In this document: positions 3,136 through 64,000 of the stretch, piece by piece | Layout of the letters: each line of letters begins with the position of its first letter | How positions within the stretch are numbered: position 1 is the stretch's first letter | NCBI GenBank assembly: GCA_028714455.1 | Contig: JAQTMG010000004.1 | Span: 5,425 to 69,424 of the forward strand | Length of the DNA stretch: 64,000 bases | Source: Patescibacteria group bacterium | GTDB lineage: Bacteria; Patescibacteriota; Patescibacteriia; CAIXNZ01 | Reading direction: 5' to 3' | The notes under the pieces: model-generated | Database searches by the model: none | Told to the model about the DNA's origin: nothing | Seen by the model: only the letters and a program-made list of their open reading frames with translations | Made by a program: the position numbers and the translations under genes

Positions 3136-3912
3136 ATGGGCCATATTATTTCTATTGTTAATCAAAAAGGAGGGGTCGGTAAAACGACAACGGCCGTAAA
3201 TCTTGGCGCTTACCTGGCCAGTCTGGGTAAGTTTGTTCTTCTGGTTGACGTTGACCCACAGGCTAATGCCACGAGCGGTCTCGGTATTGATTATAATAAA
3301 CTTGAGCATGGAGTTTATGAAGCGCTGATGGGTGACAAACATTTTAAGGATGTTATTTTAAATACTGCAATTCCCGGCTATAAAATTGCCCCTGCCAATG
3401 CGAATCTGGCCGGTGCTAATGTTGAGTTGGTAAATATGGAAAACCGAGAGTCGCGACTCGAACAGGCACTGCTGCCCATCAGGAACGATTTTGACTATAT
3501 AATAATCGATTGTCCGCCGTCGCTTGGTCTACTTACGCTTAACAGCCTAGTAGCTGCAGAAAAACTTTTGATACCAGTGCAGGCAGAGTATTATGCGCTT
3601 GAAGGTTTGGGTCAATTGATGAATACGATAAACTTGATTAAGGGGAATATTAAACCTAGTCTAGAAGTCATGGGAGCTGTTCTGACTATGTATGATAAGC
3701 GAACAAAACTTTCAGACGAGGTTCTACACCAACTTTATCAATATTTCCCAAATCGCATCTTTCGTTCGGTCATCCCGAGAAATGTACGCCTGACTGAATC
3801 GCCGAGCTTTGGTAAATCCATTTACGAATATGATCCGAAATCAAAAGGCGCTAAGGCCTATGAGCGACTGGCTCGTGAGATTTTAGATATAACCAATTTT
3901 AACTATATTTAA
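3136..3912 (+). CDS. parA: Chromosome partitioning ATPase ParA/Soj
   Basis: Deviant Walker A motif IVNQKGGVGKTTTAVNLGA, characteristic of the ParA/MinD family. It lies immediately upstream of parB. Confidence 0.9.
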   Translation: MGHIISIVNQKGGVGKTTTAVNLGAYLASLGKFVLLVDVDPQANATSGLGIDYNKLEHGVYEALMGDKHFKDVILNTAIPGYKIAPANANLAGANVELVNMENRESRLEQALLPIRNDFDYIIIDCPPSLGLLTLNSLVAAEKLLIPVQAEYYALEGLGQLMNTINLIKGNIKPSLEVMGAVLTMYDKRTKLSDEVLHQLYQYFPNRIFRSVIPRNVRLTESPSFGKSIYEYDPKSKGAKAYERLAREILDITNFNYI

Positions 3913-19298: not shown

Positions 19299-19321
19299 GT
19301 TGAAAGTTTATAAAGTTTGAT

Positions 19322-26805: not shown

Positions 26806-26830
26806 TGCTAAAAAGAGTTAAAATATATAT

Positions 26831-51100: not shown

Positions 51101-51386
51101 GAGCGCTTACTGCACAAAAAATGACGGTCTTTATGACAACGGCAGTGCGCCAAAATATAATTATCAGACCTACGCCTGCCTGACCTATTTCCCGCTGGCC
51201 ATCGACGTTTGTCCATATTACAAGACAAAAGCCAGTTGTCTGAATAATCCGGTTTGCAATTGGGGATTTTGCTATAGTTTTGATGCCAATGGCCGCCAGG
51301 TGATACAAACAAATTATTCAACGCAGGTAATTTGCGAAAAACAACCGGGATTTATCTGGCAGGATGAGCCGTGCCTAAGAAGATAA
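45111..51386 (+). CDS. Giant (2091 aa) secreted/surface protein, Cys-rich, with a lectin-like (LamG/CBM-like) module; first gene of the T4SS-like cluster
   Basis: N-terminal signal/anchor helix and more than 90 Cys. A central segment (...GGHSLFVGSGS...NLYTISFWAKTDN...) resembles a concanavalin-like beta-sandwich. Its stop lies 9 nt before the VirB6-like gene. Confidence 0.55.
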   Translation: MLGQKNSKINKVALITLSLIFIFSSSYLAFGWNVRQSHAQALVFDAPAFAHLTGTEILTKIYDEIKAVFFKNVLGSFANKIAEQTAIWVASGGNGAKPQFVTNFTEFTQGFADAAVGDFVQNIMKDLTGLDVCTLDPRLAINIVLNIPTFPGNENNKPSCTWTQMKNHWEEIGKSQLLTLNATLQPGGQFGQNVQQQNAAVQNNPTLRCWTSDLYSGHYVSATSCTPSSCSNSSDIFTCPAPAVQGALELSGKTLSDYSTVLSQDVSLMSAHALDGTTQAFSAGIGSYEVVPENIPLVRDKWLAKIDAQIAPLTALINKYGPCQGVDAVQFISGGNCNSVAQELGLNIQGTDLGNPNFPTLAAKVKGDLGQKTSYVYNSAQSIKSGYDYLKSQITQYFSPENFQGGAAYNSNMAKDFFNPDAFEFNAYATLTQKINEVGLQTFTQQQIDLTVNQGWKSATDKIGGYIETPSNLLRDKASEDLKQGKTASAYTNNIAADALGVFLETLWNQYTQRLLQGIANPKQAQESKKISIPGTLGQGTQGTTSRYSQDITTPEGVTKYIQDIGKQFQASYTYKDVNLLADFQLQITGLVNPNIYNNVIDSNFALAINDQQTIQEALDAGRLVGNYRFSWGSQLESGTYSLANIKKLRKARAVPIGLELAVELIRDCSLNPIGPLCASNKLPAGASPSDIAKFTLQEVIKGFDKSGNDGICGTLDSNESAFCNLVNPNWVLKIPLTKCSYESDLEPFGEILQSNDSSERYSRCTDFASCLQEDGKGGCQDEQYGFCVKEKNVWRLGAETCPADYDSCRTYTVRQGETTTTVSYLKNTLPGSGVCGPDNAGCQPYAYERVGTSWNAEKKIYLDANAETCDRTSEGCSLFWPSGDLKTAIGEKAPLYYRKPPAYLGCTGSTNDNPLCQNYMQICNAAEVGCQLYKPLNGDPSVPAVAKSTDLCPAECVGYSVYVQQPTAYEPEPVNLYNYFIAGAVSRCSLEQIGCSQFTNLDEVSQGGEGLHYYTYLKQCIKPNIGLGEKAYFTWQSSATGSPKIIRYQLKQVLVSDQQKYPEANLALGSPMTIDLSGECDSAGNPNCLEFFDDGGNTYRRDLTLTISVSDDCHPLRKEDSDETNCTATNGNWLNNACIYNAIPSENTSCGAEAVGCRAYTGNRGNNIFNLINDDFENASAASAGWSSGSRSNESIALGGHSLFVGSGSTSKSAPLAANNLYTISFWAKTDNTSLENISAGFDKIANSPSQFSVSAVWQNFTVGPISINSNYPDNNLIFSGINQNIYLDNIIVKRTSDQLYAVKNSWVGKIPASCDTPSVGAMLGCEAYQNTAGQNFYFKSFTNLCAENKVGCQLLIDTQNSLSPEAQTFSQSNNPADDYVVPADSQDVPYVLNDQYKCLPADKGCQLLGKPVSVNFIDVYLKNDPDKYTNVANPIMCKAEAVGCTELINDTGGSEFYQIDSTKICAFDEQAGQWLLGGSGCYASSQNLNPYTILPTTDQNYDGKVGACPGRYNGCTQFSTYSQTQGNEAEKLLDDNYFALDTGNTLDRSSCSSVDWNSGCVRFQNRVTNAPEVIKVDRDRDCAEWLVCKEKDANGLCLKTGVCDQMQNGQCAAGHILESCKKYDNPCDLAAWSDCENCLLENQCLSPSNCPNCDAQNCSTIVTNCRQNGSCLATQPTCAFDPITHVCSPQGDCEVDSLGNCVSIYDKLKDDVRYNYAGVAIPLQRIAAQNQGYIYRLASGSALATDLNTWQAGDFSGYSVPDRYPVEVELESPLGQGFTLYPKVADIGQNLDGRYEEPICKVFPSSNSPMPYEMSGVSKTKQLNNLYSPSYQADLSSLGSMCSYGEVTAGGVTTNFPISMVYPSLDASGNILKDANGNIIYKTSGVQDVTNICTTPAYRQGKWCTVNGAPKTGDDPGQTCPYSDSNPANAASTCSPVENVKIYNGIENMCLEYDTLSPVYADLYKNSYDGPYTCSGAAGFDANVYDKILVGGKEKSAYCTKNDGLYDNGSAPKYNYQTYACLTYFPLAIDVCPYYKTKASCLNNPVCNWGFCYSFDANGRQVIQTNYSTQVICEKQPGFIWQDEPCLRR

Positions 51387-51395
51387 AATTATTTA

Positions 51396-54377
51396 ATGAA
51401 AAATTTGAAAAAAAATAAAATATACTTGATGATTTTGCCGATCTGCATTTTTTCGTTATTTTTTGTTTGTCGGGAAACATTCGCGGCGGCAATAGCCTCG
51501 TCCGTATCGATTGTTGATGTTCTGCCAAGCATTCTAGCGCCGATTGTCATGGTTTTTGTGTCTTTCTTCGGGCAGCTTTTAATAACTTCTTTTAAGCTAT
51601 TAGTTTATGTGAGTAAATTTAATGATTTTATTAATTTTCCTTACGTAACAGTCGGCTGGACAATGTTGAGGGACGTGGTAAATATGCTTTTTATCGTCGG
51701 CTTGCTTTTCATCGCCTTTGTCACGGTTTTAAATGTGCAAAAATATGAATGGACCAAACTGCTTTTCCGCTTGCTGGTGATGGCGATTTTGGTCAATTTC
51801 AGCCGCACCATCTTGGGCCTGCTCATTGACGCCTTTCAGATAATAATGCTGACCTTTGTCAACGCTTACAAAGATATTGCCGAGGGAAATTTATTTGCCA
51901 TTTTAGGAATTCCAAATCTGGGAACATTTATACAGAACCCCGACAAAATTACAGACACACAAACGCTGGTGAGTATGCTGATGTCGTTAATTTTCATTGT
52001 TGTTTCTTTGATTGTAGTATTCATTTATTGTATTATCTTGGCGTTTAGAATAGTTGTTTTGTGGATTTTGATAATCGTTTCTCCACTGGCGTTTTTTTCC
52101 TGGGTTTTCGAGGGAGCCGTCAGCCAGTTGGGCAGTTTTTCCGGACAATTTTGGAGATATTTGTGGCAATATTTGTCAGTCGGGCCCATGCTGGCTTTTT
52201 TCCTTTGGCTGTCTCTCTCAACTCTGACCAACATGAACCTGCCCGTGGAAACTGGTTCGACAACCCAAGTCGGTTTGGGCTTGGCCGGTACTTTTGATAA
52301 TATCGCCAAATATTTATTTGCCATCTTGACTCTCGTAGCCGCTCTTGTGCTTACTTCGAGTTTTCAAGTCGCGGGCGCTTCTTACGCGGGCAGAGCAGTG
52401 AACTGGATGAAAGACCAGAGCGTCGGGCGCCTGGAAAGAGGCGCCAGGCGGGCCGCGGCCGGAGCAGGCTATATGGCCACCACACCAGTTCGTGCGCTTA
52501 AGCCCTATGCGACAGGAGTTGCCGAGGGTGTATCCCAAAAGCTGCAAGCCGGCAGATTTACCAAACTTTTGACAAGCGCGGGCCGAAAACGTACTTCTGA
52601 AGCCATGAGAGCCGATGCCGAGTCTTTGGTTTTATCTGGTCGCGCCGGTACTGCCGAACAAAGGAAAATTCAAGCCGAAAACGCGGAGAGTTATAAGAAA
52701 AACAGGCCAGATATCAACTGGGAAAATCCCAACGAAGTGCGGGAAAAGATTTTGGACAAAGAAATGAAAAAAACACCGGCAATTTTAAGAGATAAAGCAG
52801 CTCTGGAAGCCGCCTATACTGCTTTAGCTGATAAGGGTCAGCTGCAATACAATGATCTTAAAGAGATGCAGGGCAGCGGAGGGCTTTTGGATGGTAAAGG
52901 CAGAAGGAACAAGCAAATATTTCTTGAGGACATGGAGAAGCGGGTGGAAAAAGAAACAGGACGGCACAAATCATTTTCCGATTTGATATATAACGAAGAC
53001 ACAAACGAATACGAAGTCGTCAGCGATCTAATAGAAAAGGCAAAGATAGCAACGGCGGATACAAAAGATGAGGATTTATTAAATAGAATTGCAGACTTGG
53101 ATCCCAGCAAAATTACGAAAAAAGATACCGAAGGCATATACAAACTTGATAAGGATAGTGACGAATATAAGAGATTAGAAAGTTCAGACAATAAAAAAGA
53201 CGTAGATTTTCTCAATTATCTTAAAGGAAAGGAAGACAAGGGTGTACAAAAAGATTCCGAATTTTGGACAATAATGCGATCGAGTCAGGCAAAAAGTAGC
53301 AGGCGCAAAGAGGTGCAAAAAGGCATTGGTACTGCTAATCAGGAAAGGCTCAACAAATCTGCCAAGCAGACAGATTTATTGGATATTATGAAAAATCCAG
53401 TTGATTACGTGATGGCAGAGGGAAGGGGTCTTTTACAACAAATCCCCAGAATCGGCGGTTTGGATCAGCCAGGCCGTGACAATATTAAAACAAAGTTGCA
53501 ATTCATGTTTGGCTCTGGCGAAGAAAGAGCCAAGTTGATTGATAAAAATAAAAATTTGTTTGATCCATCATTGCACAATAAATCAGCAGATGAATTGGCC
53601 AAAATGGCTCAAATTAAAGAACTTGATAGACAGGTTAGTAATTTGAGCCTCGATGATTTGGAGAAATACCAAGACTTGGCAGTAGAGGTGTCTAGTAAAT
53701 TTAATACTATAGGTCAGAAACTCGACGGCGGTGAAGGTCAAAAAGATGATCATATTGAAGATAGAATTAAAACAAAACGCAAAAAAGAAACATTTACAGT
53801 GGGGGTTGAGCAGGAATTAGGCAAAGTCCTTGTTGGCTCTGGTTTTGCAGATGAAAGAAATAAAGCCATTAAATTTATTGACGTGCAGGCGGCTGATATG
53901 CTAAAGGCCACCGAGGGTATGGGGAAGGATGAAAGAGTTATAGAAATTGCCGATAGAATGGCGGGGGAACCTGATTCAGGGTTATTTGGTAGAGGAGAAA
54001 TCGCTCAAGAGATGACTAAATATTTATTGCAGAAAGAAAGCGAGATAAAAGCAAGGGATAAAATAGTAAAAGATAAGCAAAAAGAACTTGCTCAAAAAAT
54101 AAAACAAGGCTTAAGAAATGTGACAAATCAATTTAATTCAGGTCAAAAGAATCCCAAAGCGTTGCAGTTTTATTTTAAGGCATTGAGCAAAAATTTATCT
54201 AGTGATATAGAAAAAAATGCCCTGAATAAAGAACTTTTTAGTTATGATGCCTTGCAAAAACAATTTGACGATGCGATAAATTTAATAGAAGAAAAAGACA
54301 AAGCCGAATTTAATAAGAAGATGAAGGACATCAGGGATACATTTGACGGTTTGGGTCTTAAAGTAAAAGAAAAATAA
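51396..54377 (+). CDS. VirB6/TrbL-like polytopic membrane protein with a long charged C-terminal extension
   Basis: At least 6 predicted transmembrane helices lie in the first ~330 aa. A 650-aa Lys/Glu-rich coiled-coil-like tail follows. Its position before the PrgI-like and VirB4 genes matches Gram-positive T4SS gene order. Confidence 0.45.
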   Translation: MKNLKKNKIYLMILPICIFSLFFVCRETFAAAIASSVSIVDVLPSILAPIVMVFVSFFGQLLITSFKLLVYVSKFNDFINFPYVTVGWTMLRDVVNMLFIVGLLFIAFVTVLNVQKYEWTKLLFRLLVMAILVNFSRTILGLLIDAFQIIMLTFVNAYKDIAEGNLFAILGIPNLGTFIQNPDKITDTQTLVSMLMSLIFIVVSLIVVFIYCIILAFRIVVLWILIIVSPLAFFSWVFEGAVSQLGSFSGQFWRYLWQYLSVGPMLAFFLWLSLSTLTNMNLPVETGSTTQVGLGLAGTFDNIAKYLFAILTLVAALVLTSSFQVAGASYAGRAVNWMKDQSVGRLERGARRAAAGAGYMATTPVRALKPYATGVAEGVSQKLQAGRFTKLLTSAGRKRTSEAMRADAESLVLSGRAGTAEQRKIQAENAESYKKNRPDINWENPNEVREKILDKEMKKTPAILRDKAALEAAYTALADKGQLQYNDLKEMQGSGGLLDGKGRRNKQIFLEDMEKRVEKETGRHKSFSDLIYNEDTNEYEVVSDLIEKAKIATADTKDEDLLNRIADLDPSKITKKDTEGIYKLDKDSDEYKRLESSDNKKDVDFLNYLKGKEDKGVQKDSEFWTIMRSSQAKSSRRKEVQKGIGTANQERLNKSAKQTDLLDIMKNPVDYVMAEGRGLLQQIPRIGGLDQPGRDNIKTKLQFMFGSGEERAKLIDKNKNLFDPSLHNKSADELAKMAQIKELDRQVSNLSLDDLEKYQDLAVEVSSKFNTIGQKLDGGEGQKDDHIEDRIKTKRKKETFTVGVEQELGKVLVGSGFADERNKAIKFIDVQAADMLKATEGMGKDERVIEIADRMAGEPDSGLFGRGEIAQEMTKYLLQKESEIKARDKIVKDKQKELAQKIKQGLRNVTNQFNSGQKNPKALQFYFKALSKNLSSDIEKNALNKELFSYDALQKQFDDAINLIEEKDKAEFNKKMKDIRDTFDGLGLKVKEK

Positions 54378-54379
54378 AT

Positions 54380-55687
54380 ATGGATTTAGTAAAAATAAAA
54401 AAAGGCGACCTTGGTCAGCTGGAACCAATTTTTGACAAAATTATACAAGATAGCCGGTTGGGAGAGAAGAACGATGTTATATTAGACATCTTGGGCGATG
54501 TTATATCGGGAGCAACCGATATTTTAGATGTGCCGACGATTTTCAGCGACGCATTAAAAATTGATTTTGGCAGAGCTGTTGAGTTGGCATATGAGTTAGA
54601 TACTCAAATAGTGCAAAAAAAATCGCAACTGGAATCGATAAAAAAGAATTTAATGAAAAAAAATTTAGTTGCCTTTTCACCCCAGACCATTGCCGATGAA
54701 TTTTTAGCAGAAATAAATTATAAGTTCACGGATTCTGCGTTAAAAAAAAGATACGATGATGCGATTTTAAGCTGGCTAAAAGGGACTAGGAAAGAAAATG
54801 ATTTAAGAGATGTTTTAACTCGTTCTGTAAAAATTGGCGGAGTCGGTATGAGCGAGGAAGCATATGGTAAACTGGCAGCACTTTTGGGAGAAAAGCAGCA
54901 GCAGATTGAATCAGGTCAAATAAATATGCCGCAGATAATCAGTGAGTACGAGGGTGGGGGAAATACCGAAGAGACAAATTTGTCAGAACCAGATATTGAT
55001 GTCTCGGCTAAAATAAAATTGGGCAAAGAGAGGCCGACTCAAGAAAACGGAGTCGGGATTCACCAGCTCCTGCAAGAGAAAGGAATAAATTTTAATGAGC
55101 TGTCCAGAATTGAGAAAATAAAGCGTGAGCTGGGAGACATTGAGAGGGTACCGGAAGTCAGCGGCGATTTTGCCAAAGACGTGGTTGAGGAGGAAGAATT
55201 TTTAGCCAGCAAAAAAGAAATCGCGCCGCCCGCCTTTGCGCCAAAACCGTCAGCAGCGCCGAGACAAACCGTCCAGAAAAATTTCAACGTTAAAAACGAA
55301 TCTCCTGTCCAGTTTAAGCCAAGACCGGCGGTCAGAGAAAGACCAAGGATGGAAGACGTTAAATTTACCGAGCAGAAATTATACGGACCGATTGACGAGT
55401 TGGCGGCGCTGACCATCACTGATTTTCGCCGACTGTCTAGAGATCCCGGGGAAGCGGCTTTGAAAATTTTGGGCAAGCTGGATTTACTAGAAGACGAGTC
55501 TCTGGTGAAAAAAACGCAGGGAATCGAAGCGCTAAAAAGCAGCCCACTTTATAAACTTTACGCGCAGACAATGAATCTGGCCATGAGTCAATCAAAGTCG
55601 ATTGAACAAGTGATTAATGAAAATAAAAATATTTCGCTGCCCGAGTATAAGGCGATAGTGGAATTAAATCAAAAATTAAAGTACTGA
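54380..55687 (+). CDS. Hypothetical acidic soluble protein within the T4SS-like cluster
   Basis: 435 aa with no transmembrane helix. Translationally coupled: its start lies 3 nt after the upstream stop. Confidence 0.5.
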   Translation: MDLVKIKKGDLGQLEPIFDKIIQDSRLGEKNDVILDILGDVISGATDILDVPTIFSDALKIDFGRAVELAYELDTQIVQKKSQLESIKKNLMKKNLVAFSPQTIADEFLAEINYKFTDSALKKRYDDAILSWLKGTRKENDLRDVLTRSVKIGGVGMSEEAYGKLAALLGEKQQQIESGQINMPQIISEYEGGGNTEETNLSEPDIDVSAKIKLGKERPTQENGVGIHQLLQEKGINFNELSRIEKIKRELGDIERVPEVSGDFAKDVVEEEEFLASKKEIAPPAFAPKPSAAPRQTVQKNFNVKNESPVQFKPRPAVRERPRMEDVKFTEQKLYGPIDELAALTITDFRRLSRDPGEAALKILGKLDLLEDESLVKKTQGIEALKSSPLYKLYAQTMNLAMSQSKSIEQVINENKNISLPEYKAIVELNQKLKY

Positions 55688-55688
55688 T

Positions 55689-56108
55689 ATGCCCGGACCA
55701 TTCGCGGTGCCACAATTTATAGACGCGGAAAATAAAATCTTCGGCCCGATCACGACCAGACAATTTTTGATTATGATGGTGGCGGGGATGCTGGATTTTA
55801 TTTTTTACAAGATATTCTTTTTTAATATTTTTATAGTAATAGCGGTAATTACGACAGGTGTTTTCGGCATATTTGCGTTTTTACGCATCAACGGCGTGGC
55901 CTTTCATATTTTTTTCCTGAATCTCGTCTTGACATTGAGAAGACCGAGACTGCGCCTCTGGCACAAAGAAGAAATAAAATCGCTGCCGCCCGTTGAAAAA
56001 GTTGAAATAAAAAAGGAATTTATACCCAAGCCGGCGATTTCGAGTTCGCGCTTAACGAGCTTGTCGCTGGTCGTTAACACGGGCGGCGCCTATAAAGAAG
56101 AAGAATAA
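55689..56108 (+). CDS. PrgI/VirB3-like small membrane protein
   Basis: 139 aa. The N-terminus VPQFIDAENKIFGPITTRQFLIM is followed by two transmembrane helices, the pattern of PrgI-family proteins that precede VirB4 in Gram-positive T4SS. Confidence 0.4.
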   Translation: MPGPFAVPQFIDAENKIFGPITTRQFLIMMVAGMLDFIFYKIFFFNIFIVIAVITTGVFGIFAFLRINGVAFHIFFLNLVLTLRRPRLRLWHKEEIKSLPPVEKVEIKKEFIPKPAISSSRLTSLSLVVNTGGAYKEEE

Positions 56109-56173
56109 TGAACCACTAAAATATAATCACTAAATACACGAAAATTTAGCGGTTGTTATAAAAAATAATTACT

Positions 56174-56830
56174 ATGGCAAAAACTTCAACGCAACAATAT
56201 CTGGATATCGCCGAGATAAGAGACAACACGGTTGTGCTTAAAGACGGCACCTTAAGAAGCATAATTTTGTGTTCCAGCATTAATTTCGCCCTTAAATCAG
56301 AAGATGAGCAGAACGCCTTGATTATGGGCTACGTTGAATTCTTAAATTCGCTGGAACATCCGCTGCAGATAGTCGTGCAATCTAGGAAACTAGACATCGA
56401 AGAATATATAAATCGCCTGAAAGAAGCCGAGAAAAAACAAGCGAATGAATTATTACGGATCCAGATCAACAGCTATCTAGATTTCATTAATCAGCTGGTT
56501 GAGATTGGTGAGATTATGACGAAGCGTTTTTTTCTGGTTGTGCCGTACAATCCCTTGGGCAATAAGGGCAAAGGTTTTTTTGCGCGTTTAAAGGAGGCAT
56601 TTAGTCCCAGCGCCCAGATAAAAATAAAGAGAGAGAAATTTATTCAATATAAGCAAGAGCTGGATCAGCGAGTCGCCAATATACAATCATCCCTCAATTC
56701 GATGGGGCTCGACAGTGCTACTTTAGACACCCAGGGATTAATAGAACTTTTTTATAACATATATAACCCCAAGACCAGTCAGAATCAGAGGCTCCGTGAC
56801 GTGAGTCAGCTTGGAGTTGAAATCGTTTAA
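56174..56830 (+). CDS. VirB4 N-terminal domain, encoded as a separate ORF
   Basis: The sequence QQYLDIAEIRDNTVVLKDGTLRSIILCSSINFALKSEDEQ...FLNSLEHPLQIVVQS matches the N-terminal domain of PrgJ/TraC/VirB4 proteins. An in-frame TAA is followed 9 nt later by the ATPase ORF. Confidence 0.55.
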   Translation: MAKTSTQQYLDIAEIRDNTVVLKDGTLRSIILCSSINFALKSEDEQNALIMGYVEFLNSLEHPLQIVVQSRKLDIEEYINRLKEAEKKQANELLRIQINSYLDFINQLVEIGEIMTKRFFLVVPYNPLGNKGKGFFARLKEAFSPSAQIKIKREKFIQYKQELDQRVANIQSSLNSMGLDSATLDTQGLIELFYNIYNPKTSQNQRLRDVSQLGVEIV

Positions 56831-56839
56831 TATATTTTT

Positions 56840-58780
56840 ATGGCTCTACCCCTACCGACAGAGACAAATAAAACAGAGAATCAGGTTGAGGCTCAATTGA
56901 CGCCCAGCCAGCGAAGAGCGCAGGAAGCGGCCCAACTTAAGGCCGAGGCGATTACTCTTGAAGAGGAGCGAATTTACAGAAAGGGCGTCGTTGATATAAA
57001 GGATCTGATAGCTCCGGCTGCTTTTGAAGTCAAGCCGACTTTTCTGCTTTTGGGCGACACATATTTACGCACCTTTTTTGTCCTGAATTATCCGCGCTAC
57101 ATAAGCGTCGGCTGGTTTACGCCGATTATTAATTTTTCCAAGACTCTAGACGTCTCCATGTTTTTTTATCCCGTGAAATCGGACGTGATTTTAAAACAGC
57201 TTAAAAAAAGAGTCGGCAACATGGAGGCGCAGCTGATGACTGACCGTGAAAAAGGCGCGCCTCGCGATCCCATTCTCGAGACCGGTCTGTCCGACATAGA
57301 AAAACTTCGCGACGATCTGACTCAAGGAACAGAGAAATTTTTTCAGTTCGGCCTCTATATAACAATCTACGCCGATTCGATGGATGAGCTTGACAAGCTG
57401 ACTTCGGAGATAGAGTCGGTGCTGGGCGGCAAATTGATTTACAGCAAGAGAGTCTTTTATCAGGCCGAGCAGGGATTTAATTCCACTCTGCCGCTGGCCA
57501 ACGACGAGATCACGGTATCATTCAACATGAATACCTCGCCAGTCGCTTCGTCTTTCCCCTTTATCTCCTCGGAGCTGACTTCGGACGAAGGCATATTGTA
57601 CGGCATCAACAGACACAATAACAGCTTAATTCTTTTTGATCGCTTCTCTTTGCAAAACGCCAATTTTGCGGTTTTCGCCACGGCCGGCGCCGGCAAAAGC
57701 TACGCCATAAAGCTAGAAGTCCTGCGCAGCCTGATGCTCGGCTCCGACGTGATTATCATCGATCCGGAAAGAGAATATTTGCACCTGGCTGAAGCGGTGG
57801 GCGGCAGCTACATCGACATTTCTCTCTCTTCAAAAAGCAAGATTAACCCCTTTGATCTGCCGCGCGGCATCGGCGACGCTTCAACCGAAGACATAATCAG
57901 AAGCGCCGTTATAACTCTAAAAGGTTTATTGCGCATCATGCTCGGCAAGATGACGGTTGAGGAGGATAATATTCTCGACCGTGCTTTATTGGAGACATAT
58001 GCCAGCAAGGATATTACGGCCAATTCCGACCTCTCAACCGTTGAGGTGCCCGTGATGCAGGATTTACAAAATATTCTCGAAGGTCTGGAAGGAGCCAAGA
58101 GCTTAAGCCTGCGATTGAGAAAATATACGGAAGGAACTTTTTCCGGCCTTTTCAATAATCCCACCAACGTCGACATGAAAAATCAGCTGGTGGTTTTCAG
58201 CGTCAGGGATCTGGAAGACGAGCTAAGGCCGCTCGCCATCTACAGCATTATAAATTACATCTGGAATGTCGTGCGTTCTGAAATAAAGCGCAGAATTTTG
58301 GTGATTGACGAGGCCTGGTGGCTGATGACTCAAGAGGATTCGGCCAAATTCATTTACGCCCTGGTTAAGAGATGCAGAAAATATTATTTGGGCGTGACCA
58401 CCATAACTCAAGACGTCAACGATTTTTTAAATAGTCCTTACGGCAAAGCGATCGTCACTAATTCCGCGCTGCTTTTATTGCTCAAACAATCGCCGGCTTC
58501 GATTGATAACATCCAAAAGGTTTTTTTGCTGACCCAGGGCGAGAAATATCTTTTGCTGGAGGCGGGCGTTGGAGAGGGAATATTTTTCGCCGGTAGAAAA
58601 CACGCGGCAATTAAAATCGTCGCTTCTTACAGCGAGGATCAGTTGATCACCACCGATCCTAAACAACTTTTGGAAATTGAAGCCGCTAAGCGGGAATTTG
58701 AGCAGGCAGGCGGAAACGAAGAACAAAAACCGGCAGCTCCGGCCGCCAAAGCAGAGGGCGTTGAAGAAATGAAAATTTAA
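56840..58780 (+). CDS. virB4: VirB4-family T4SS ATPase (C-terminal two-thirds)
   Basis: Walker A is FATAGAGKS and Walker B is ILVIDEAWWL. The middle domain YPRYISVGWFTPIINF...DVSMFFYP is typical of VirB4/TrbE. Confidence 0.8.
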   Translation: MALPLPTETNKTENQVEAQLTPSQRRAQEAAQLKAEAITLEEERIYRKGVVDIKDLIAPAAFEVKPTFLLLGDTYLRTFFVLNYPRYISVGWFTPIINFSKTLDVSMFFYPVKSDVILKQLKKRVGNMEAQLMTDREKGAPRDPILETGLSDIEKLRDDLTQGTEKFFQFGLYITIYADSMDELDKLTSEIESVLGGKLIYSKRVFYQAEQGFNSTLPLANDEITVSFNMNTSPVASSFPFISSELTSDEGILYGINRHNNSLILFDRFSLQNANFAVFATAGAGKSYAIKLEVLRSLMLGSDVIIIDPEREYLHLAEAVGGSYIDISLSSKSKINPFDLPRGIGDASTEDIIRSAVITLKGLLRIMLGKMTVEEDNILDRALLETYASKDITANSDLSTVEVPVMQDLQNILEGLEGAKSLSLRLRKYTEGTFSGLFNNPTNVDMKNQLVVFSVRDLEDELRPLAIYSIINYIWNVVRSEIKRRILVIDEAWWLMTQEDSAKFIYALVKRCRKYYLGVTTITQDVNDFLNSPYGKAIVTNSALLLLLKQSPASIDNIQKVFLLTQGEKYLLLEAGVGEGIFFAGRKHAAIKIVASYSEDQLITTDPKQLLEIEAAKREFEQAGGNEEQKPAAPAAKAEGVEEMKI

Positions 58781-58797
58781 TTATTAATAATTTAGAT

Positions 58798-59412
58798 ATG
58801 GCCAATCCAGATTCAAATCGAAGAAGAAGATTAATACTTTTGATAGTTTTGATTTTGTTGATTCTGATCATTAGCTTCGCCATTTATTATTTTTATTTTT
58901 TTCAGCAACTATCGCCGCTTTCGAATTCAAACATTCAGAATACCAACACCGCTCAAAATTTTAACACAAACGGCCTGCCGACGATTATCGCCAACGTGAA
59001 CATGACTCCGGCCCAGATTCAACAACAGGCGAATGAGAACGAGGTGTTGTTTTTTGCCATGCCTTTCGCGGAAAGATTCGGCACATTTTCTAACCAAAGC
59101 GATTTTGTTAATTTCAGCGAGTTAAAAAGCCAGATGACGGCAGCGACAATAAACTGGGTGCAAAATACTTATATTCCAAGCCTGATTAAACTGTATCCCA
59201 AATCAAGTTATTACGGCATTGAGACCAAGGCGCTCTCCAGCGACTTTAACTCGTTAGATGAAAATCAGGGCACCGCTGACGTGCTCGTGAAGACGCAGAG
59301 AATCGAGTATAAAGTCTCTCTCTCGAACCCGAGGATTTTTTATCAGAATATTCTTTTGAAATTAGTAAAAAGCGGCCAGATCTGGAAAGTGAATGGCGTT
59401 TATTGGCAATAG
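58798..59412 (+). CDS. Membrane-anchored protein, possible VirB8/PrgL-like component
   Basis: 204 aa. An N-terminal Arg-rich segment and one transmembrane helix are followed by a soluble domain of NTF2-like size. The assignment rests on position after VirB4 and is inferred, not supported by motifs. Confidence 0.3.
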   Translation: MANPDSNRRRRLILLIVLILLILIISFAIYYFYFFQQLSPLSNSNIQNTNTAQNFNTNGLPTIIANVNMTPAQIQQQANENEVLFFAMPFAERFGTFSNQSDFVNFSELKSQMTAATINWVQNTYIPSLIKLYPKSSYYGIETKALSSDFNSLDENQGTADVLVKTQRIEYKVSLSNPRIFYQNILLKLVKSGQIWKVNGVYWQ

Positions 59413-60139
59413 CATGTCTTTTTTAGAAAAAATAAAAAATGTCATCCTGGATCTGATTTTCCCTAGGGAATGCATTGGCTGCGGAACCGAGGGTTCGTAT
59501 CTGTGTGGAGATTGTCAACGGAAAATAAAAATCAACAGAAATTTTTATTGTGTTGTCTGTAAAAAGCCGACTCATCTTCCAAGAATTTGCGAAGATTGCG
59601 GTAAAGAGTACCGCTTGAAAGCTGTTTTTGTGGCCGCTGATTATAATGACAAAGCTCTCCATGACCTGATTCATCTGCTCAAGTATAAATTTATCGAAGA
59701 GGCGAGTTCGGGCTTGGGTGAAATTGTAATAAATTATCTTGAACAAAATAAAATTTTCCAAAATTTTGATTTTGGGCCTGACAATACCGTCTTTGTGCCA
59801 GTTCCACTTCACCGAAAAAGATTTTTAAATCGCGGCTTTAATCAAAGTGATTTGATAGCGAATCACTTAAGTGAATTTTATAAAATTCCTAAAAAAGTTT
59901 TGATCTCGAGGATCAGAAACACGCAGAGTCAGGTGGAATTGAAAAAGTCGGAGCGACGAGAAAACGTCAGAGACGCCTTTATTCTTTCAGCAGATAAAAG
60001 TTTTGATAAAAATAAAAAAATCATCCTCGTGGATGATGTGGTTACGACAGGCAGTACCTTGAATGAATGCGCGAAAGTATTTTTAAAAGAGGGGTTTGTT
60101 GATGTTTACGGACTAGTCGTTGCGCAAAGGGAAGATTAG
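59393..60139 (+). CDS. comFC: ComF family protein (ComFC-like phosphoribosyltransferase)
   Basis: N-terminal zinc-finger pairs (CIGCG..CGDC, CVVC..C) and a C-terminal PRTase motif IILVDDVVTTGSTL. Confidence 0.8.
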   Translation: MAFIGNSMSFLEKIKNVILDLIFPRECIGCGTEGSYLCGDCQRKIKINRNFYCVVCKKPTHLPRICEDCGKEYRLKAVFVAADYNDKALHDLIHLLKYKFIEEASSGLGEIVINYLEQNKIFQNFDFGPDNTVFVPVPLHRKRFLNRGFNQSDLIANHLSEFYKIPKKVLISRIRNTQSQVELKKSERRENVRDAFILSADKSFDKNKKIILVDDVVTTGSTLNECAKVFLKEGFVDVYGLVVAQRED

Positions 60140-60140
60140 T

Positions 60141-60494
60141 CCGGAGAGGGGGATTCCGCTCATCTTTAAACCGATCTTAATTAGAATTAAGATAGTAAAA
60201 GCGCCTGGGCTCGCTGTGCCCTTGGCACATCGCTCGCCCTTCGAAACCCAACGCAAGCAAAGCAGTTTGCTTGCTCCCCTTGAAAGTTTTTTAAATATTT
60301 CGGAGGTTTAAAAATTCGGAAGGGGTGGGATTCCGCTCATCTTTGAGACGATTTTAATCAAAATTATGATAGTAAAAGCGCCTGGGCTCGCTGTGCCCTT
60401 GGCACATCGCTCGCCCTTCGAATCCCAACGCAAACAAAGCAGTTTGTTTGCTCCCCTTGAAAGTTTTTTAAATATTTCGGAGATTTAAAAATTC
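60141..60494. repeat. Tandem direct repeat of two 177-bp units at about 90% identity, each beginning with a copy of the tRNA-Ser 3'-terminal sequence
   Basis: GGATTCCGCTCATC recurs at 60151 and 60328, and the related GGATTC(GAACC) at 60505, giving a 177-bp period. Internal hairpins GCAAGCAAAGCAGTTTGCTTGC and GTGCCCTTGGCAC are present. Confidence 0.8.
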
Positions 60495-60545
60495 GGAAGG
60501 GGTGGGATTCGAACCCACGGTCCCGTTGCCAGGACTCCAGTTTTT
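60494..60545 (-). pseudogene. 3' fragment of tRNA-Ser(TGA), from the anticodon loop to the 3' end
   Basis: 52 nt identical to positions ~36-88 of the intact tRNA 32 nt upstream of it on the same strand. It is preceded by GGTGCGGGG. Confidence 0.7.
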
Positions 60546-60577
60546 CTGCGACCCCGCACCGTTTTCTTACGGAAAAA

Positions 60578-60664
60578 CGGAAGGGGTGGGATTCGAACCC
60601 ACGGTCCCGTTGCCAGGACTCCAGTTTTCAAGACTGGTACATTCGACCGCTCTGTCACCCTTCC
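60578..60664 (-). tRNA. tRNA-Ser (anticodon UGA), type II
   Basis: Folds as GGAAGGG..CCAGT-CTTGAAA-ACTGG, long variable arm, GTGGG-TTCGAAT-CCCAC-CCCTTCC-G. Confidence 0.85.
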
Positions 60665-60727
60665 CTTTCGTTTTTCCATAAGATTATTTGATATTTTAAA
60701 ATACTTGCAAAATTGGTGCGGGGCAGG

Positions 60728-60759
60728 CTGGTACATTCGACCGCTCTGTCACCCTTCCC
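60728..60759 (-). pseudogene. 5' fragment of tRNA-Ser(TGA), from the acceptor stem to the 5' strand of the anticodon stem
   Basis: 32 nt identical to the 5' end of the intact tRNA 63 nt downstream of it on the same strand. It is followed by CCTGCCCCGCACC. Confidence 0.7.
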
Positions 60760-60800
60760 TAAATTCGCTATTGGTTAATCGGCCCGGAAAATCAACTGGG

Positions 60801-60892
60801 CGGAGAGGGGGGGATTCGAACCCCCGCGCCGGCTAAAACGCCGACCTACAGGTTTAGCAAACCCGCCCCTTCAGCCTCTTGGGTACCTCTCC
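60801..60892 (-). tRNA. tRNA-Ser (anticodon GCU), type II
   Basis: Folds as GGAGAGG..CGGGT-TTGCTAA-ACCTG, long variable arm, GGGGG-TTCGAAT-CCCCC-CCTCTCC-G. Confidence 0.85.
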
Positions 60893-60961
60893 AAAGCCTG
60901 CTTATTTACAAATTTTACTATAAAAAAATCAAAAAGTCAAACTAACATTTCATTTTAAAAT

Positions 60962-61462
60962 ATGGCAGAAAAAAACGAAAATACGCGAGGCGACTTTGGG
61001 GAAATCTTCTTTCAATGGCATACCCCAGAGTTTACAAGATATCCCAGGGGCTGGTCCTGGTATCTGTTAACCATCGTTATCGGTCTTGTTTTGATTATTT
61101 ACAGCATTTTCACGGCCAATTTTTTGTTTGCCCTGATTATTATTTTGGCCGGCTTTATTGTGTTTCTGAAAAGCTACAAGCAGCCGGTCGACTTGCTTTT
61201 TCAGATTACGGAGAGCGGCCTGGTACTTGGCAATCAATTTTTCGATTACGACAGAATTAAGAATTTCTATTTTATTTATGACCCTCCGGTTGTAAAAAAA
61301 CTTTTTTTTAATCTTAAGGGCCTCGCTCCCACAGTCTCTATACAGCTTAATGATAAAAATCCTCTGCTCGTGAGGGAGAGGCTGTTAAAATATTTGAAGG
61401 AAGATGTAGACAAAAAACATCAGGCTCTGGATGATCAGTTGGAATCGATATTGAAACTTTAA
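60962..61462 (+). CDS. Hypothetical membrane protein with two transmembrane helices (bacterial PH-like?)
   Basis: 166 aa. Two adjacent hydrophobic helices are followed by a soluble C-terminal domain. Confidence 0.5.
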   Translation: MAEKNENTRGDFGEIFFQWHTPEFTRYPRGWSWYLLTIVIGLVLIIYSIFTANFLFALIIILAGFIVFLKSYKQPVDLLFQITESGLVLGNQFFDYDRIKNFYFIYDPPVVKKLFFNLKGLAPTVSIQLNDKNPLLVRERLLKYLKEDVDKKHQALDDQLESILKL

Positions 61463-61475
61463 CCAGCATTTAAAA

Positions 61476-61506
61476 TAAAGGAGATTTTTAACATCTCCTT
61501 TTATTA
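61476..61506 (+). terminator. Intrinsic terminator
   Basis: Hairpin AAGGAGAT-TTTTAAC-ATCTCCTT followed by TTATT. Confidence 0.7.
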
Positions 61507-61651
61507 TTAGTCTTGATTTTTTCGTAAAAAAATAGTACCATTTGACCATTAGCTCTCGAGCAGATAAAAGTCTATGTGGCAATGCGCTTGATTCGTTTTT
61601 ACACAAGAAATAAAAATATAAGTTTAGGCATGGATTACATAAACTTTTATC

Positions 61652-61704
61652 TGCTCTCGTAGTTTCCGCCAAAGGCGGACCCGCCTCCGGCGGGCAACGG
61701 ATAG
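61652..61704 (+). pseudogene. 5' fragment of tRNA-Arg (positions 1-22) interrupted in the D-loop by a 31-nt GC-rich insertion
   Basis: GCTCTCGTAGTT, then TCCGCCAAAGGCGGACCCGCCTCCGGCGGGC (two small hairpins), then AACGGATAG. The intact tRNA 16 nt downstream reads GCTCTCGTAGTTCAACGGATAG. Confidence 0.5.
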
Positions 61705-61719
61705 TAAAAATATAATCTA

Positions 61720-61791
61720 GCTCTCGTAGTTCAACGGATAGAATATGGGTTTGCGGAACCCAGGATTGAGGTTCGATTCCTCACGAGAGCA
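61720..61791 (+). tRNA. tRNA-Arg (anticodon GCG)
   Basis: Folds as GCTCTCG-TA-GTTC..GAAT-A-TGGGT-TTGCGGA-ACCCA-GGAT-TGAGG-TTCGATT-CCTCA-CGAGAGC-A. TATAAT lies 3 nt upstream. recG starts 4 nt downstream. Confidence 0.7.
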
Positions 61792-61794
61792 CAA

Positions 61795-63861
61795 ATGTAT
61801 CCTCTTAATACTCCAATAGAAAAACTGACCAGAGTTGGCAAAGCGACGGCCAGGTATTTAAAGGCGCTTGGAATTTTTACTGTTTTTGATTTGATCTATA
61901 ATTTCCCCTTTCGCTATGAGGATTTTTCTCATCTGGCGAAAATTAAAGATTTAAAACTTGGACAAATCGTCACGGTCAGGGGAAAAATTATTCTGATCAA
62001 AAATAGACGCAGTTATCGAAGAAGGATGTATATTACCGAAGCATTGATCGGGGATGAAACAGGCGATATCAAAGTTGTCTGGTTTAATCAGCCGTTTCTG
62101 ACAAAAAATCTGAAAAGCGGCGATGGGATTTTTATCTCGGGTAGGGTTGACGCCGATAATTTATTGAGCCCGCAATTTGTTTCGCCGAGCTACGAAAAAA
62201 TAAACGGCGCTAAAAGTTTGAATACGGCCAAGATTGTTCCGATTTATTCATTGAGCGGAAATTTAACCTTGAAACAATTACGTTTTTTGGAAAATCTGGC
62301 ACTTGGTTCGATTAAGCTGGTGAAAGAATGGTTGCCCAAAAATATTTTACAGAAAAACAAGCTATTATCACTAACTTCAGCTCTTGAGGAGATTCATTTC
62401 CCTAAAAATTTTAAGAGTTTGGAAAAAGCGCGTTATCGTTTAAAATTTGACGAGCTTTTTTTAATTGCCCTACAGAGTCAAATAATCAGAAGATATTTGG
62501 CTAAAAACCAAGCGCCTGGTATTGAGTTTAAAGAAAAGGATATTAAAAATTTTGTCAGTTCGTTAAGCTTTCAACTGACAAATGACCAGAAAAAAGCAGC
62601 TTGGCAAATACTTTTAGATATGCAAAAAGAAACGCCCATGAACCGTTTGCTTGAAGGTGACGTGGGCTCTGGCAAGACGATCGTCGTCGCTTTGGCCGTT
62701 TTGAACACGGTTTTAAACGGTTATCAGGCAGTCTTTATGGCGCCAACTGAAATTCTGGCCAAGCAGCACTTTCAAACCTTCAAAAAATTACTAACGCCAA
62801 GAAACGTAAAAATCGCGCTTTTGAGCGGCAGCGAGAAAAGTCTTGGTGACAGTTTTGATGTACCCGGAAACAAATTAATGAAAGTAATAAAAAATGGCAG
62901 GGCAGACTTGGTTATTGGTACGCATGCTCTTATTCAAGAAAAAGTTGAATTTAATAATTTGGGCCTGGCCATAATTGATGAACAGCATCGTTTTGGCGTG
63001 GAGCAACGTAAAAAATTAAAAGATAAGAGCGAAAAATTGACGCCGCATTTTTTATCCCTGACCGCCACCCCCATACCGCGTTCACTGGCCCTGATTTTTT
63101 ATGGCGATTTGGATTTATCAATAATTCGTGAAATGCCAGCCGGCCGCAAAAAAATTATCACCAAATTAGTTAGTGAAGCCAACCGGTCCAAGGCTTATCA
63201 TTTTATTAGAGCGGAAATAAAATCCGGCAGGCAGGTTTTTGTCATCTGCCCCCTGATTGACCCGTCAGACAAGCTGGGAGTCAAATCAGTCACCGATGAA
63301 TTCAAAAAATTGAGCAAGCAGATTTTTCCTGATTTAAAAATAGGATTACTTCACGGCAAATTAAAAGCTGAAGAGAAAGACGGGGTCATGCGGGAATTTA
63401 AAGAAAATAAAATCCAGATTTTAGTTTCCACTTCGGTTATTGAAGTTGGTATTGATATTCCTAATGCGACAATAATGATGATTGAAGGGGCTGACAGATT
63501 TGGCTTGGCGCAGCTGCATCAATCTCGCGGTCGCGTGGGCAGGGGAGAACATCAGTCGTATTGCTTTTTGTTCACTGATAACGATTCCGAAAAAACAGCA
63601 GAAAGATTATCGGCTTTGCTAAAATCCAATGACGGTTTCAGGCTGGCTGAATACGATTTGAAATTTCGCGGGCCAGGTGAGGTTTACGGCCTAAGGCAGT
63701 CGGGTCTGCCTGATTTTAAAATCGCCAGTTTAGGCGATATAGATTTGATAAATCTGACAAAATATGAAGCTGGAAATTTTTTGGACAGATATGACATTAA
63801 TGATTTTCCAGAATTAAAAGTTAAGCTAGATGAAATAAAAATTATTGACCACCCAGAATGA
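61795..63861 (+). CDS. recG: ATP-dependent DNA helicase RecG
   Basis: An N-terminal wedge/OB domain is followed by SF2 helicase motifs (GDVGSGKT, DEQHRFGV, QLHQSRGRVGRG). Confidence 0.9.
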   Translation: MYPLNTPIEKLTRVGKATARYLKALGIFTVFDLIYNFPFRYEDFSHLAKIKDLKLGQIVTVRGKIILIKNRRSYRRRMYITEALIGDETGDIKVVWFNQPFLTKNLKSGDGIFISGRVDADNLLSPQFVSPSYEKINGAKSLNTAKIVPIYSLSGNLTLKQLRFLENLALGSIKLVKEWLPKNILQKNKLLSLTSALEEIHFPKNFKSLEKARYRLKFDELFLIALQSQIIRRYLAKNQAPGIEFKEKDIKNFVSSLSFQLTNDQKKAAWQILLDMQKETPMNRLLEGDVGSGKTIVVALAVLNTVLNGYQAVFMAPTEILAKQHFQTFKKLLTPRNVKIALLSGSEKSLGDSFDVPGNKLMKVIKNGRADLVIGTHALIQEKVEFNNLGLAIIDEQHRFGVEQRKKLKDKSEKLTPHFLSLTATPIPRSLALIFYGDLDLSIIREMPAGRKKIITKLVSEANRSKAYHFIRAEIKSGRQVFVICPLIDPSDKLGVKSVTDEFKKLSKQIFPDLKIGLLHGKLKAEEKDGVMREFKENKIQILVSTSVIEVGIDIPNATIMMIEGADRFGLAQLHQSRGRVGRGEHQSYCFLFTDNDSEKTAERLSALLKSNDGFRLAEYDLKFRGPGEVYGLRQSGLPDFKIASLGDIDLINLTKYEAGNFLDRYDINDFPELKVKLDEIKIIDHPE

Positions 63862-63863
63862 GG

Positions 63864-63892
63864 TTGACAAATTATAAAAAGTTTGCTAAATT
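63864..63892 (+). promoter_or_regulatory. Candidate promoter: TTGACA, 17-bp spacer, TAAATT
   Basis: TTGACA at 63864-63869 with a 17-nt spacer. It lies upstream of an ORF preceded by a Shine-Dalgarno sequence at the window edge. Confidence 0.35.
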
Positions 63893-63951
63893 TTTTATAT
63901 ATAAAAAATCGGTTCTCTGATAAACCCAAACCCAAAGGAAGGAGGAAGCTG

Positions 63952-64000
63952 ATGTCGAAACGGGAAACGCAAAGCGGAAACAGAGGAGCCCTCACCAAAA
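63952..64000 (+). CDS. 5' end of an unidentified gene running off the window
   Basis: A Shine-Dalgarno AGGAGG lies 6 nt before the ATG. The translation begins MSKRETQSGNRGALTK and the segment is GC-rich. Confidence 0.35.
   Translation, partial: MSKRETQSGNRGALTK

Follow-up and report, generated by a model that had tools for sequence, protein, structure and literature searches.

An intact tRNA-Ser(UGA) gene nested between copies of its own halves in a Patescibacteria chromosome: probable layered rearrangement scars with the outward form of a split tRNA

On the minus strand of a 64,000-nucleotide stretch of a Patescibacteria genome (assembly GCA_028714455.1, contig JAQTMG010000004.1; the whole stretch is referred to here as the window), an intact tRNA-Ser(UGA) gene is nested between a copy of its own 5' half and a copy of its own 3' half, with complementary GC-rich 9-mers at the two break points. 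This arrangement raises the question whether the halves are the parts of a split or permuted tRNA, as a first-pass annotation of this DNA had considered among other options, or whether they are remnants of past rearrangements. tRNA genes are classic landing sites for mobile DNA, and partial copies of tRNA genes are often mis-annotated. We conclude that the locus is an unusually layered variant of known tRNA-gene rearrangement scars, and as such of modest interest. The account that we favour, tentatively and with slightly less than even confidence, is that two rearrangements, one older than the other, struck a tRNA recombination hotspot and left the half-copies behind as dead DNA.

All elements of the nest lie on the minus strand and are described here in the order in which they are read. 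The upstream neighbour is a tRNA-Ser(GCU) gene (60797..60893; ARAGORN and Rfam), which has its own promoter-like site at 60940-60912 in a promoter scan and occupies the equivalent position in all syntenic relatives. It is followed by a 38-nt spacer, S0 (60759..60796), and by the 5' fragment (60725..60760), a direct copy of positions -2 to 33 of tRNA-Ser(UGA) that was found as a 36-nt repeat of 97% identity and by BLAST (33/33). The core of this fragment (60758-60728) is identical to the start of the tRNA at 31/31 positions; the identity also spans two upstream nucleotides (AG) and extends to U33 with a single mismatch (T31C), which places the break point within the anticodon loop. The 5' fragment is a dead copy. 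At its junction the sequence reads ACCAG-CCTGCCCCGCACC, followed by the native leader and the tRNA. This junction contains the left arm of a GC-rich inverted repeat, CTG-CCCCGCACC (60715..60726, with CCCCGCACC itself at 60723-60715), and the 50-nt spacer behind it (60665..60714) was identified as the native leader of the working tRNA by the promoter scan, which placed a promoter-like TTGCAA-16-AATAAT at 60710-60683, and by its colinearity with the leader of a relative, L044. Arm and leader together form a stretch X of 62 nt from 60726, the first two bases of which (CT) overlap the end of the 5' copy. Next comes the intact tRNA-Ser(UGA) gene of 87 nt (60578..60664; ARAGORN; 60.1 bits over the full-length Rfam tRNA model), in which no CCA is encoded and which is the sole functional copy. 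The 33-nt linker Y downstream (60545..60577), which has a homologue in L044, consists of a trailer arm TTTTTCCGTAAGA (60577-60565), AAAC, the right GC arm GGTGCGGGG (60560-60552) and TCG-CAG-A. The 3' fragment (60494..60544) is a direct copy of tRNA positions 36-76, identical at 51/51 positions, and begins in the anticodon loop with one additional A. The intervals between the gene and its fragments are 62, 33 and 160 nt. Every element described in the first-pass annotation is present, and the layout and lengths given there are right to within 1 nt, the downstream spacer being 33 and not 32 nt and the 3' fragment 51 and not 52 nt long.

The 9-mers at the two break points, CCCCGCACC and GGTGCGGGG, are perfectly complementary, and the true GC pairing extends over 12 bp, between CTG+CCCCGCACC and GGTGCGGGG+TCG bulge+CAG, with an unequal spacing of the half-sites on the two sides (1 nt vs 5 nt). 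A second inverted repeat, TCTTATGGAAAAACG / CGTTTTTCCGTAAGA, is complementary at 14/15 positions and directly flanks the intact tRNA, with its leader arm at 60683-60669; its lone mismatch is a G-U pair on the tRNA strand. When the ends of X are compared with the reverse complement of Y, three matching blocks appear (3/3, 9/9 and 14/15), which amounts to 26/27 matching positions over the arms and the trailer block. Among random 20-mer pairs from the window, at least 9 complementary bases were found in 234 of 200,000 trials (1.2e-3). As the first-pass annotation had proposed, other copies of the 9-mers were searched for, and just these two sites were found in the 64 kb; a repeated family resembling repetitive extragenic palindromes was rejected on the same ground. 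Neither the window, nor 55 fetched loci, nor a scan of Joint Genome Institute (JGI) metagenome contigs yielded a second copy of the left arm, and exact patterns for the arm pair (CTGCCCCGCACC N140-170 GGTGCGGGGTCGCAG) and for any broken 5' fragment of tRNA-Ser(UGA) gave 0 hits each in the JGI contigs. RNAfold confirmed the earlier expectation that a single fold could bring the halves together around the inner tRNA, since it nests the entire region in one structure (-111.6 kcal/mol), the z-score of which (-5.2) is inflated because tRNA copies are present in the sequence. At the junctions, RNAcofold pairs CCAG with CUGG, followed by a 1x5 loop, CUGC/GCAG (4 bp), a 3-nt bulge GUC on the 3' strand and 8 bp, and both unpaired regions of at least 3 nt lie on the 3' strand. 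The left arm repeats the end of linker Y in inverted orientation, and it is for this reason that the 9-mers are complementary, not because they form a selected RNA helix.

Could the halves nevertheless be joined into a tRNA? For Nanoarchaeum, Randau is said to have reported in 2005 that the sequences adjoining the tRNA halves are GC-rich and mutually complementary. The same applies here, where CTG-CCCCGCACC and GGTGCGGGG-(TCG)-CAG adjoin the two halves, and, as in Nanoarchaeum equitans, the halves end and begin at the anticodon loop (PMC2237900, PMC3491384). However, the Nanoarchaeum halves lie at separate loci in an archaeon with a splicing endonuclease, meet at a bulge-helix-bulge (BHB) or bulge-helix-loop (BHL) junction and yield a canonical tRNA for which there is no other gene, whereas in the window the host is bacterial, as is the gene content (RecG, ComF, DprA, FtsZ), the halves flank an intact copy, no canonical loop results, the strand that carries the bulges is the wrong one, and relatives do not conserve the layout. 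None of 90 joins of the halves around the break points that were run through ARAGORN had a UGA anticodon. Joins of native length gave AAA or TAA, and the serine anticodons AGA and CGA appeared only in joined molecules that were 4 nt too long; the geometry of the junction would leave a loop of 10-12 nt without U33. The cleavage sites of BHB and BHL motifs are by definition on opposite strands (PMC2237900), and here both bulges are on the 3' strand. Neither the layout nor the pairing is conserved in related genomes, in seven of which the locus holds a plain gene. The split-tRNA interpretation is therefore rejected, and with it the corresponding option of the first-pass annotation.

Several other candidates at the nest were tried and dropped. 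With Rfam (E <= 1 over 58000-64000), a search for a group I intron in the anticodon loop returned only tRNA and sub-threshold noise, and 87 nt of the ~185-nt insert are exact tRNA. An origin of linker Y as the decayed 5' half of a tandem tRNA copy found no support in local alignment (p ~0.4). An 83-aa open reading frame (ORF) spanning the nest is spurious; no record of it was found, and its homologues are read-throughs of single tRNAs.

The history of the nest was approached through its relatives. Synteny via RecG and ComF identified eight related loci, with the ComF-family gene (59393..60139, plus strand; Pfam DZR_2 and Pribosyltran, and homologues), which is convergent with the tRNAs, as the anchor. 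Seven of the eight (L002, L003, L047, L051, L052/53, L054 and L055) are clean, with tRNA-Ser(GCU), a single tRNA-Ser(UGA) and ComF, and the 5' fragment, the 3' fragment and the 177-bp repeats described below are absent from all seven. In these loci a few nt to ~100 nt separate the 3' end of the tRNA from the ComF stop codon, and this interval is free of tRNA fragments. An unoccupied site, for which the first-pass annotation had suggested a comparison with related genomes, therefore exists. The tRNA-Ser(UGA) of L002 is identical to the inner tRNA of the window at 87/87 positions.

The eighth locus, L044, which has the closest ComF (63%) and a p204 of 64% identity, shares only the 3' side of the arrangement: an intact tRNA, a homologous linker TTTCTCTAGAAGAAAAACAGTGCGAGGTCGCAGA and a 3' fragment beginning AAAAACCGG. 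The junction GGTCGCAGAAAAAC (TCGCAG|AAAAAC) is identical to that of the window at 14/14 positions. The T loop of the L044 3' fragment is interrupted by a 54-nt hairpin module, and for the ComF-proximal part of the locus there is independent confirmation in Logan contigs of two other runs (L045 and L046). The 5' fragment is absent from L044, as it is from all the other relatives, and no complement of the L044 9-mer lies upstream. The first-pass annotation had made its proposal depend on conservation of the 9-mer pairing, and this was not borne out, the pairing partner being missing in the sole relative that shares part of the layout. Between the inner leader of the window and that of L044 there is ungapped colinearity (26/49, p = 0.003), and the promoter-like TTGCAA/TTGTAA is at equal distance in both. 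Leader, tRNA, linker Y and 3' fragment therefore form an ancestral block to which the 5' fragment and the left arm were added. A 17-nt block of S0, TTAACCAATAGCGAATT, also resembles part of the native tRNA-Ser(UGA) leader of L044, TTACCGAATAACGAATT (14/17; shuffle p ~0.006, uncorrected over ~10 comparisons), but this resemblance is suggestive only. Four-fold degenerate sites are 37% identical between the window and L044 and thus saturated. Linker Y (60545-60577) and its L044 counterpart (L044:3859-3892) are identical at 27/34 positions (79%, p < 1e-5), which is comparable to the functional promoter of tRNA-Ser(GCU) (45/60). The complementarity between leader and trailer is 14/15 in the window vs 6/15 in L044. 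Since the arms match at 26/27 positions despite the saturation of four-fold sites, they would, without selection, be much younger than the split from L044. The 3' fragments of both genomes carry the substitutions of their own lineage's live tRNA (CTGG vs CCGG, and the variable arm), and we infer that gene conversion between the direct repeats keeps the fragment like the live gene.

The history that we favour has two stages. In the first, which would be old and common to L044, an event in the anticodon loop would have put a new 3' half and the 33-nt linker Y before the previous 3' half. This was probably an integrase-mediated insertion into the tRNA gene, which would have left a regenerated gene without encoded CCA and a displaced 3' half, the element itself having since been lost. 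Such a layout is the canonical outcome of an integrase-mediated insertion into a tRNA gene, and the anticodon loop and the T loop, in which the break points of the locus fall, are the two attachment sublocations listed for tRNA-gene islands (PMC4383910). Separate T-loop events would then have struck the displaced half, adding the hairpin module in L044 and a 17+160-nt unit, later duplicated, in the window. In the second stage, which would be young and confined to this lineage, a patch of ~47 nt would have been placed 50 nt upstream of the gene, just beyond the native leader. The patch joins a direct copy of the first 31-33 nt of the gene to the final 12-15 nt of linker Y in inverted orientation, with the switch from direct to inverted within the anticodon stem, a segment that is identical to its reverse complement (CCAG/CTGG). 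Such a pattern is a hallmark of template switching at a quasi-palindrome in replication or break repair. Anticodon stem and acceptor stem make the whole tRNA gene a quasi-palindrome, a form that favours template switching, which we take to be the probable mechanism. In quasi-palindrome template switching of the Ripley type, copying of the opposite strand at the site of a hairpin perfects imperfect inverted repeats and produces inverted patches bounded by microhomology. Classical cases involve a few bases altered inside one hairpin, whereas the window would require a hairpin formed by an entire tRNA gene and its flanks, and the inverted patch is accompanied by a direct copy of 33 nt.

Several observations weigh against this history. 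The identity of linker Y across genomes with saturated four-fold sites implies constraint or a more recent transfer that the two stages leave unaccounted for. A clean double switch predicts CCAG-TTTTT-CTG-CGA-CCCCGCACC at the 5' junction, but CCAG-C-CTG-CCCCGCACC is seen, which means that extra indels are needed. The 14/15 repeat between leader and trailer lies inside the native leader and calls for either another templated patch or selection on the pairing. Among the ORFs of at least 150 aa in the 64 kb there is no integrase or transposase, and the 'elements' between the repeats are merely 33-160 nt long. The intermediate state is seen in a single relative, L044, and the databases searched hold nothing nearer than its ComF of 63% identity by which the events could be ordered. 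Lastly, the 5' junction is known from one assembly only, independent Logan contigs ending inside the repeats.

The T-loop scars lie on the ComF side of the nest. Two tandem units of 177 bp that are 94% identical (60150..60510, minus strand; repeat search and BLAST) each open with the 17-nt 3' end of the tRNA, GAATCCCACCCCTTCCG, which spans the T loop to the discriminator and is followed by 160 nt. The first-pass annotation had already noted that the 177-bp repeats start with the tRNA 3' end. Copies of tRNA positions 58-76 are found at 60510, 60333 and 60156. The units look like T-loop-type insertion scars that were afterwards duplicated, and the T-loop insertions share one bond in the window and in L044, the one that follows GGGTTCG. 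No similarity to the 177-bp units was found in relatives, phages, plasmids or viral contigs. A BLAST search of 60140-60770 against phages and plasmids returned ordinary tRNA-Ser matches only, and scans of viral contigs gave 0 matches for the 3' half, 0 for the core of the 177-bp unit and 2 for the linker junction, the latter being chance matches in GC-rich phage DNA. As a separate observation, each unit (60150-60503) is predicted to be more stable than its shuffles (z = -4.3) and includes a 9-bp hairpin GCAAACAAA..TTTGTTTGC as well as a reverse-complement T-loop-like motif GGGATTCGAA.

The outermost remnant of a tRNA 3' end, GAATCCCCCTCTCCGG (60141..60156, minus strand), is 1 nt from the ComF stop codon. 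It is diverged, has a CCTCTCC-type acceptor strand and sits at the position of the tRNA 3' end in the clean relatives. Its equivalent in L044, AATTCCACCCTCTCCG, is of the same CCTCTCC type and adjoins ComF, and the live tRNA-Ser(UGA) of L055 also has an acceptor of this type. The outermost remnant is the old resident 3' end. In addition, two acceptor-stem types occur at this one locus within the group, GGAAGGG/CCCTTCC and GGAGAGG/CCTCTCC (window 60141-60156; L044:~3751-3771; L055:2821-2910), the remnant beside ComF being of the second type and the live gene of the window of the first. This suggests that another allele replaced the gene in the course of the rearrangements.

As an alternative to two events, a single cassette of ~185 nt with inverted-repeat ends, comprising arm, promoter and leader, a complete tRNA-Ser(UGA), linker and arm, could have entered the anticodon loop of a resident gene. 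Its recombinase or transposase would be encoded elsewhere and the palindromic site GGTGCGGGG-TCG-CAG/CTG-CCCCGCACC would mimic the anticodon stem-loop; the tRNA of the cassette would replace the destroyed gene, and L044 would have arisen by homologous deletion between the 33-nt 5' repeats. A tiny mobile cassette of this kind, directed at the anticodon loop of tRNA-Ser and equipped with a gene to replace the one it disrupts, seems unlikely to us. It would derive both break points and the inverted repeat from one event, it accommodates the promoter-like site inside the insert and the outer halves at the position of the resident gene in relatives, and recombination of the 5' direct repeats would give the exact L044 layout, including a resident-type leader. 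However, the nest would then predate the split from L044, at which neutral sites are saturated, yet the arms match at 26/27 positions. Moreover, L044 should have retained the outer S0 leader, yet it is the inner leader that is colinear with that of L044, and inner and outer copies share lineage-specific substitutions, the opposite of what is expected of a foreign tRNA unless gene conversion has occurred. The spacing of the half-sites differs (1 nt vs 5 nt). Like miniature inverted-repeat transposable elements (MITEs), the insert is short and non-coding with 12-nt inverted repeats at its ends, but it contains a whole tRNA gene together with the native leader of that gene, and the flanking direct repeats (target-site duplication) and further copies of the arms that mark MITEs and insertion sequences were found neither around it nor in the window, the 55 loci or the JGI scan, respectively. 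In comparison with the first-pass annotation, which had proposed an insertion carrying a second tRNA copy with the 9-mers as terminal inverted repeats, the DNA-level nature of the event and the inverted-repeat DNA at the breaks are retained, and the single foreign cassette is not.

We consider it improbable that two independent and fully decayed integrase islands, one leaving the 5' and the other the 3' fragment, produced the nest, with the arms as mirror-image core and arm sites. tRNA-gene islands are well documented: 2083 centre on the anticodon and 1836 lie in the T-stem region, and 3760 have 3' and 159 have 5' fragments (PMC4383910), so that both fragment types and both sublocations have precedents. 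The window resembles such Islander-type islands (anticodon-loop 'A' and T-stem 'J' sublocations; PMC4383910) in having an intact gene beside direct partial copies that start from the anticodon loop (36-76) or the T loop (58-76), together with the -2 to 33 copy, in having multiple nested scars with both 3' and the rare 5' fragments at one tRNA gene, and in the empty site of its relatives. Each junction is inside the 7-nt anticodon loop, and the adjacent 17-nt T-loop cores indicate repeated strikes on the locus. Unlike these islands, the window has no integrase or cargo between gene and fragment, only 33-160 nt; its fragments are on both sides of the gene, and its break points carry complementary inverted arms. 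Each island would have had to shrink to 33-62 nt and yet keep exactly complementary ends, there is no nearby integrase, and 50/62 nt of the left 'island' are native leader. What remains of the proposal of serial integrase attachment-site scars in the first-pass annotation is the kind of event, as the 177-bp repeats and the 3' fragment resemble T-loop and anticodon-loop insertion scars; the evidence favours two events of different age. A comparable case is tRNA-Thr(GGU) of Caldiarchaeum subterraneum, where an intact copy likewise has a 5' fragment of the same tRNA gene upstream and related genomes differ in their state, which the authors attributed to mobile DNA that integrated and recombined (Sugahara et al. 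2012, PMC3293823). There, however, the organism is an archaeon with tRNA introns, and the 1.8 kb of intervening DNA, which recur in its genome, code for a recombinase (PMC3293823), whereas the intervening 62 nt in the window are mostly native leader and encode no recombinase.

It is very improbable that the 5' junction is an artefact, either a chimera such as the inverted ones of multiple-displacement amplification or a mis-join via the tRNA repeats. Inverted chimeras are a known amplification artefact, the 5' junction is present in one assembly and Logan contigs of the same samples break in the repeats. However, chimeras formed in vitro are exact, and this inverted copy is not, as it shows a 3-nt bulge, an indel and one transition, with native leader lying between the copies; the repeats are just 33-51 nt long, an independent JGI assembly from another species (L044) bears out the 3' junction, and the ComF-side junction is confirmed by Logan contig L001.

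Least probable of all, and hardly credible, is that the long helices, one of 4 + 4 + 8 bp and one of 13-15 bp, are selected processing stems of a functional RNA, in the extreme form one from which RNase P and RNase Z excise the inner tRNA while the outer halves are ligated or act as a two-piece tRNA-like RNA, for although the region folds as one nested structure, the sole difference in the 15-bp helix is the G-U pair, the conservation of linker Y is close to that of a functional promoter and a 4-bp helix stands beside a 3-nt bulge at the junction, no join restores the Ser(UGA) anticodon in a 7-nt loop, the bulges are not placed for splicing (motif: PMC2237900), the layout is missing from seven relative loci and the pairing partner from L044, the L044 3' fragment is interrupted in its T loop, and the native promoter lies inside the outer helix.

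Some further features of the relatives deserve mention. A stand-alone gene of 85-86 aa with a GIY-YIG nuclease domain is located between tRNA-Ser(GCU) and tRNA-Ser(UGA) in four relatives, on the minus strand (L044:4047-4304, L047:3889-4149, L051:3380-3640 and L054:1705-1965). It is absent from the window, L002, L052 and L055, and tblastn found no trace of a present or decayed copy in the window. It could be a selfish nuclease at the tRNA locus and a possible source of the breaks that led to rearrangement. A GC-rich module of two hairpins (CCCCGAACC..GGTTCGGGG, then CTGATCAGAACC..GGTTCTGATC) lies directly 3' of tRNA-Ser(GCU) in four relatives (L044:4324-4393, L047:4181-4251, L051:3672-3742 and L054:~2000-2067), and a second copy is inserted in the T loop of the L044 3' fragment (L044:3772-3823). 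The module may be a small palindromic mobile element that prefers tRNA loops. Its first stem, CCCCGAACC...GGTTCGGGG, is one compensatory base pair apart from the 9-mer pair of the window, which is a lead and not a result. The 3'-terminal CCA of tRNA-Ser(UGA) is genome-encoded in L002 (L002:4213-4302), L003, L047 (L047:3769-3858) and L051 (L051:3260-3349), and not in the window (60578-60664), L044 (L044:3893-3979) or L052 (L052:3334-3422). Both genomes with linker and 3' fragment have no encoded CCA.

The window encodes ParAB, RelA, TopA, DprA, Pth, EngA, HisRS, FtsA/Z, NrdD, RF, a type-IV-secretion-like cluster, ComF and RecG, and it is core chromosome of a bacterium of the Patescibacteria (Candidate Phyla Radiation, CPR) near Candidatus Falkowbacteria. 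Among its ORFs of at least 150 aa, which were scanned against Pfam, integrase, transposase and tRNA-splicing families, splicing endonuclease and RNA ligase included, had no match. Secreted or surface proteins of up to 2091 aa with T4SS-pilin, TIG and Big_5 domains are encoded in two blocks (17529-30751 and 45111-58780) that adjoin PrgI/TraC/VirB4-like genes. The VirB4-like gene, p204 and ComF keep their synteny in L044 and L047, which indicates that this system is chromosomal and not a recent island.

At this locus of a small Patescibacteria genome, one live gene with no integrase nearby is surrounded by four or more scars, which belong to both the anticodon-loop and the T-loop type. The exact architecture of a split tRNA, with halves that break in the anticodon loop and complementary GC-rich flanks, has also been produced here by DNA rearrangement alone. 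If the functional RNA reading were true, the nest would be a bacterial and newly arisen counterpart of the archaeal split tRNAs. There is no sign at the locus that the bacterium uses the arrangement, and its value lies in annotation and in the evolution of tRNA genes, as it illustrates how insertion events could give rise to tRNA genes that are split or contain introns, as has been proposed for archaea.

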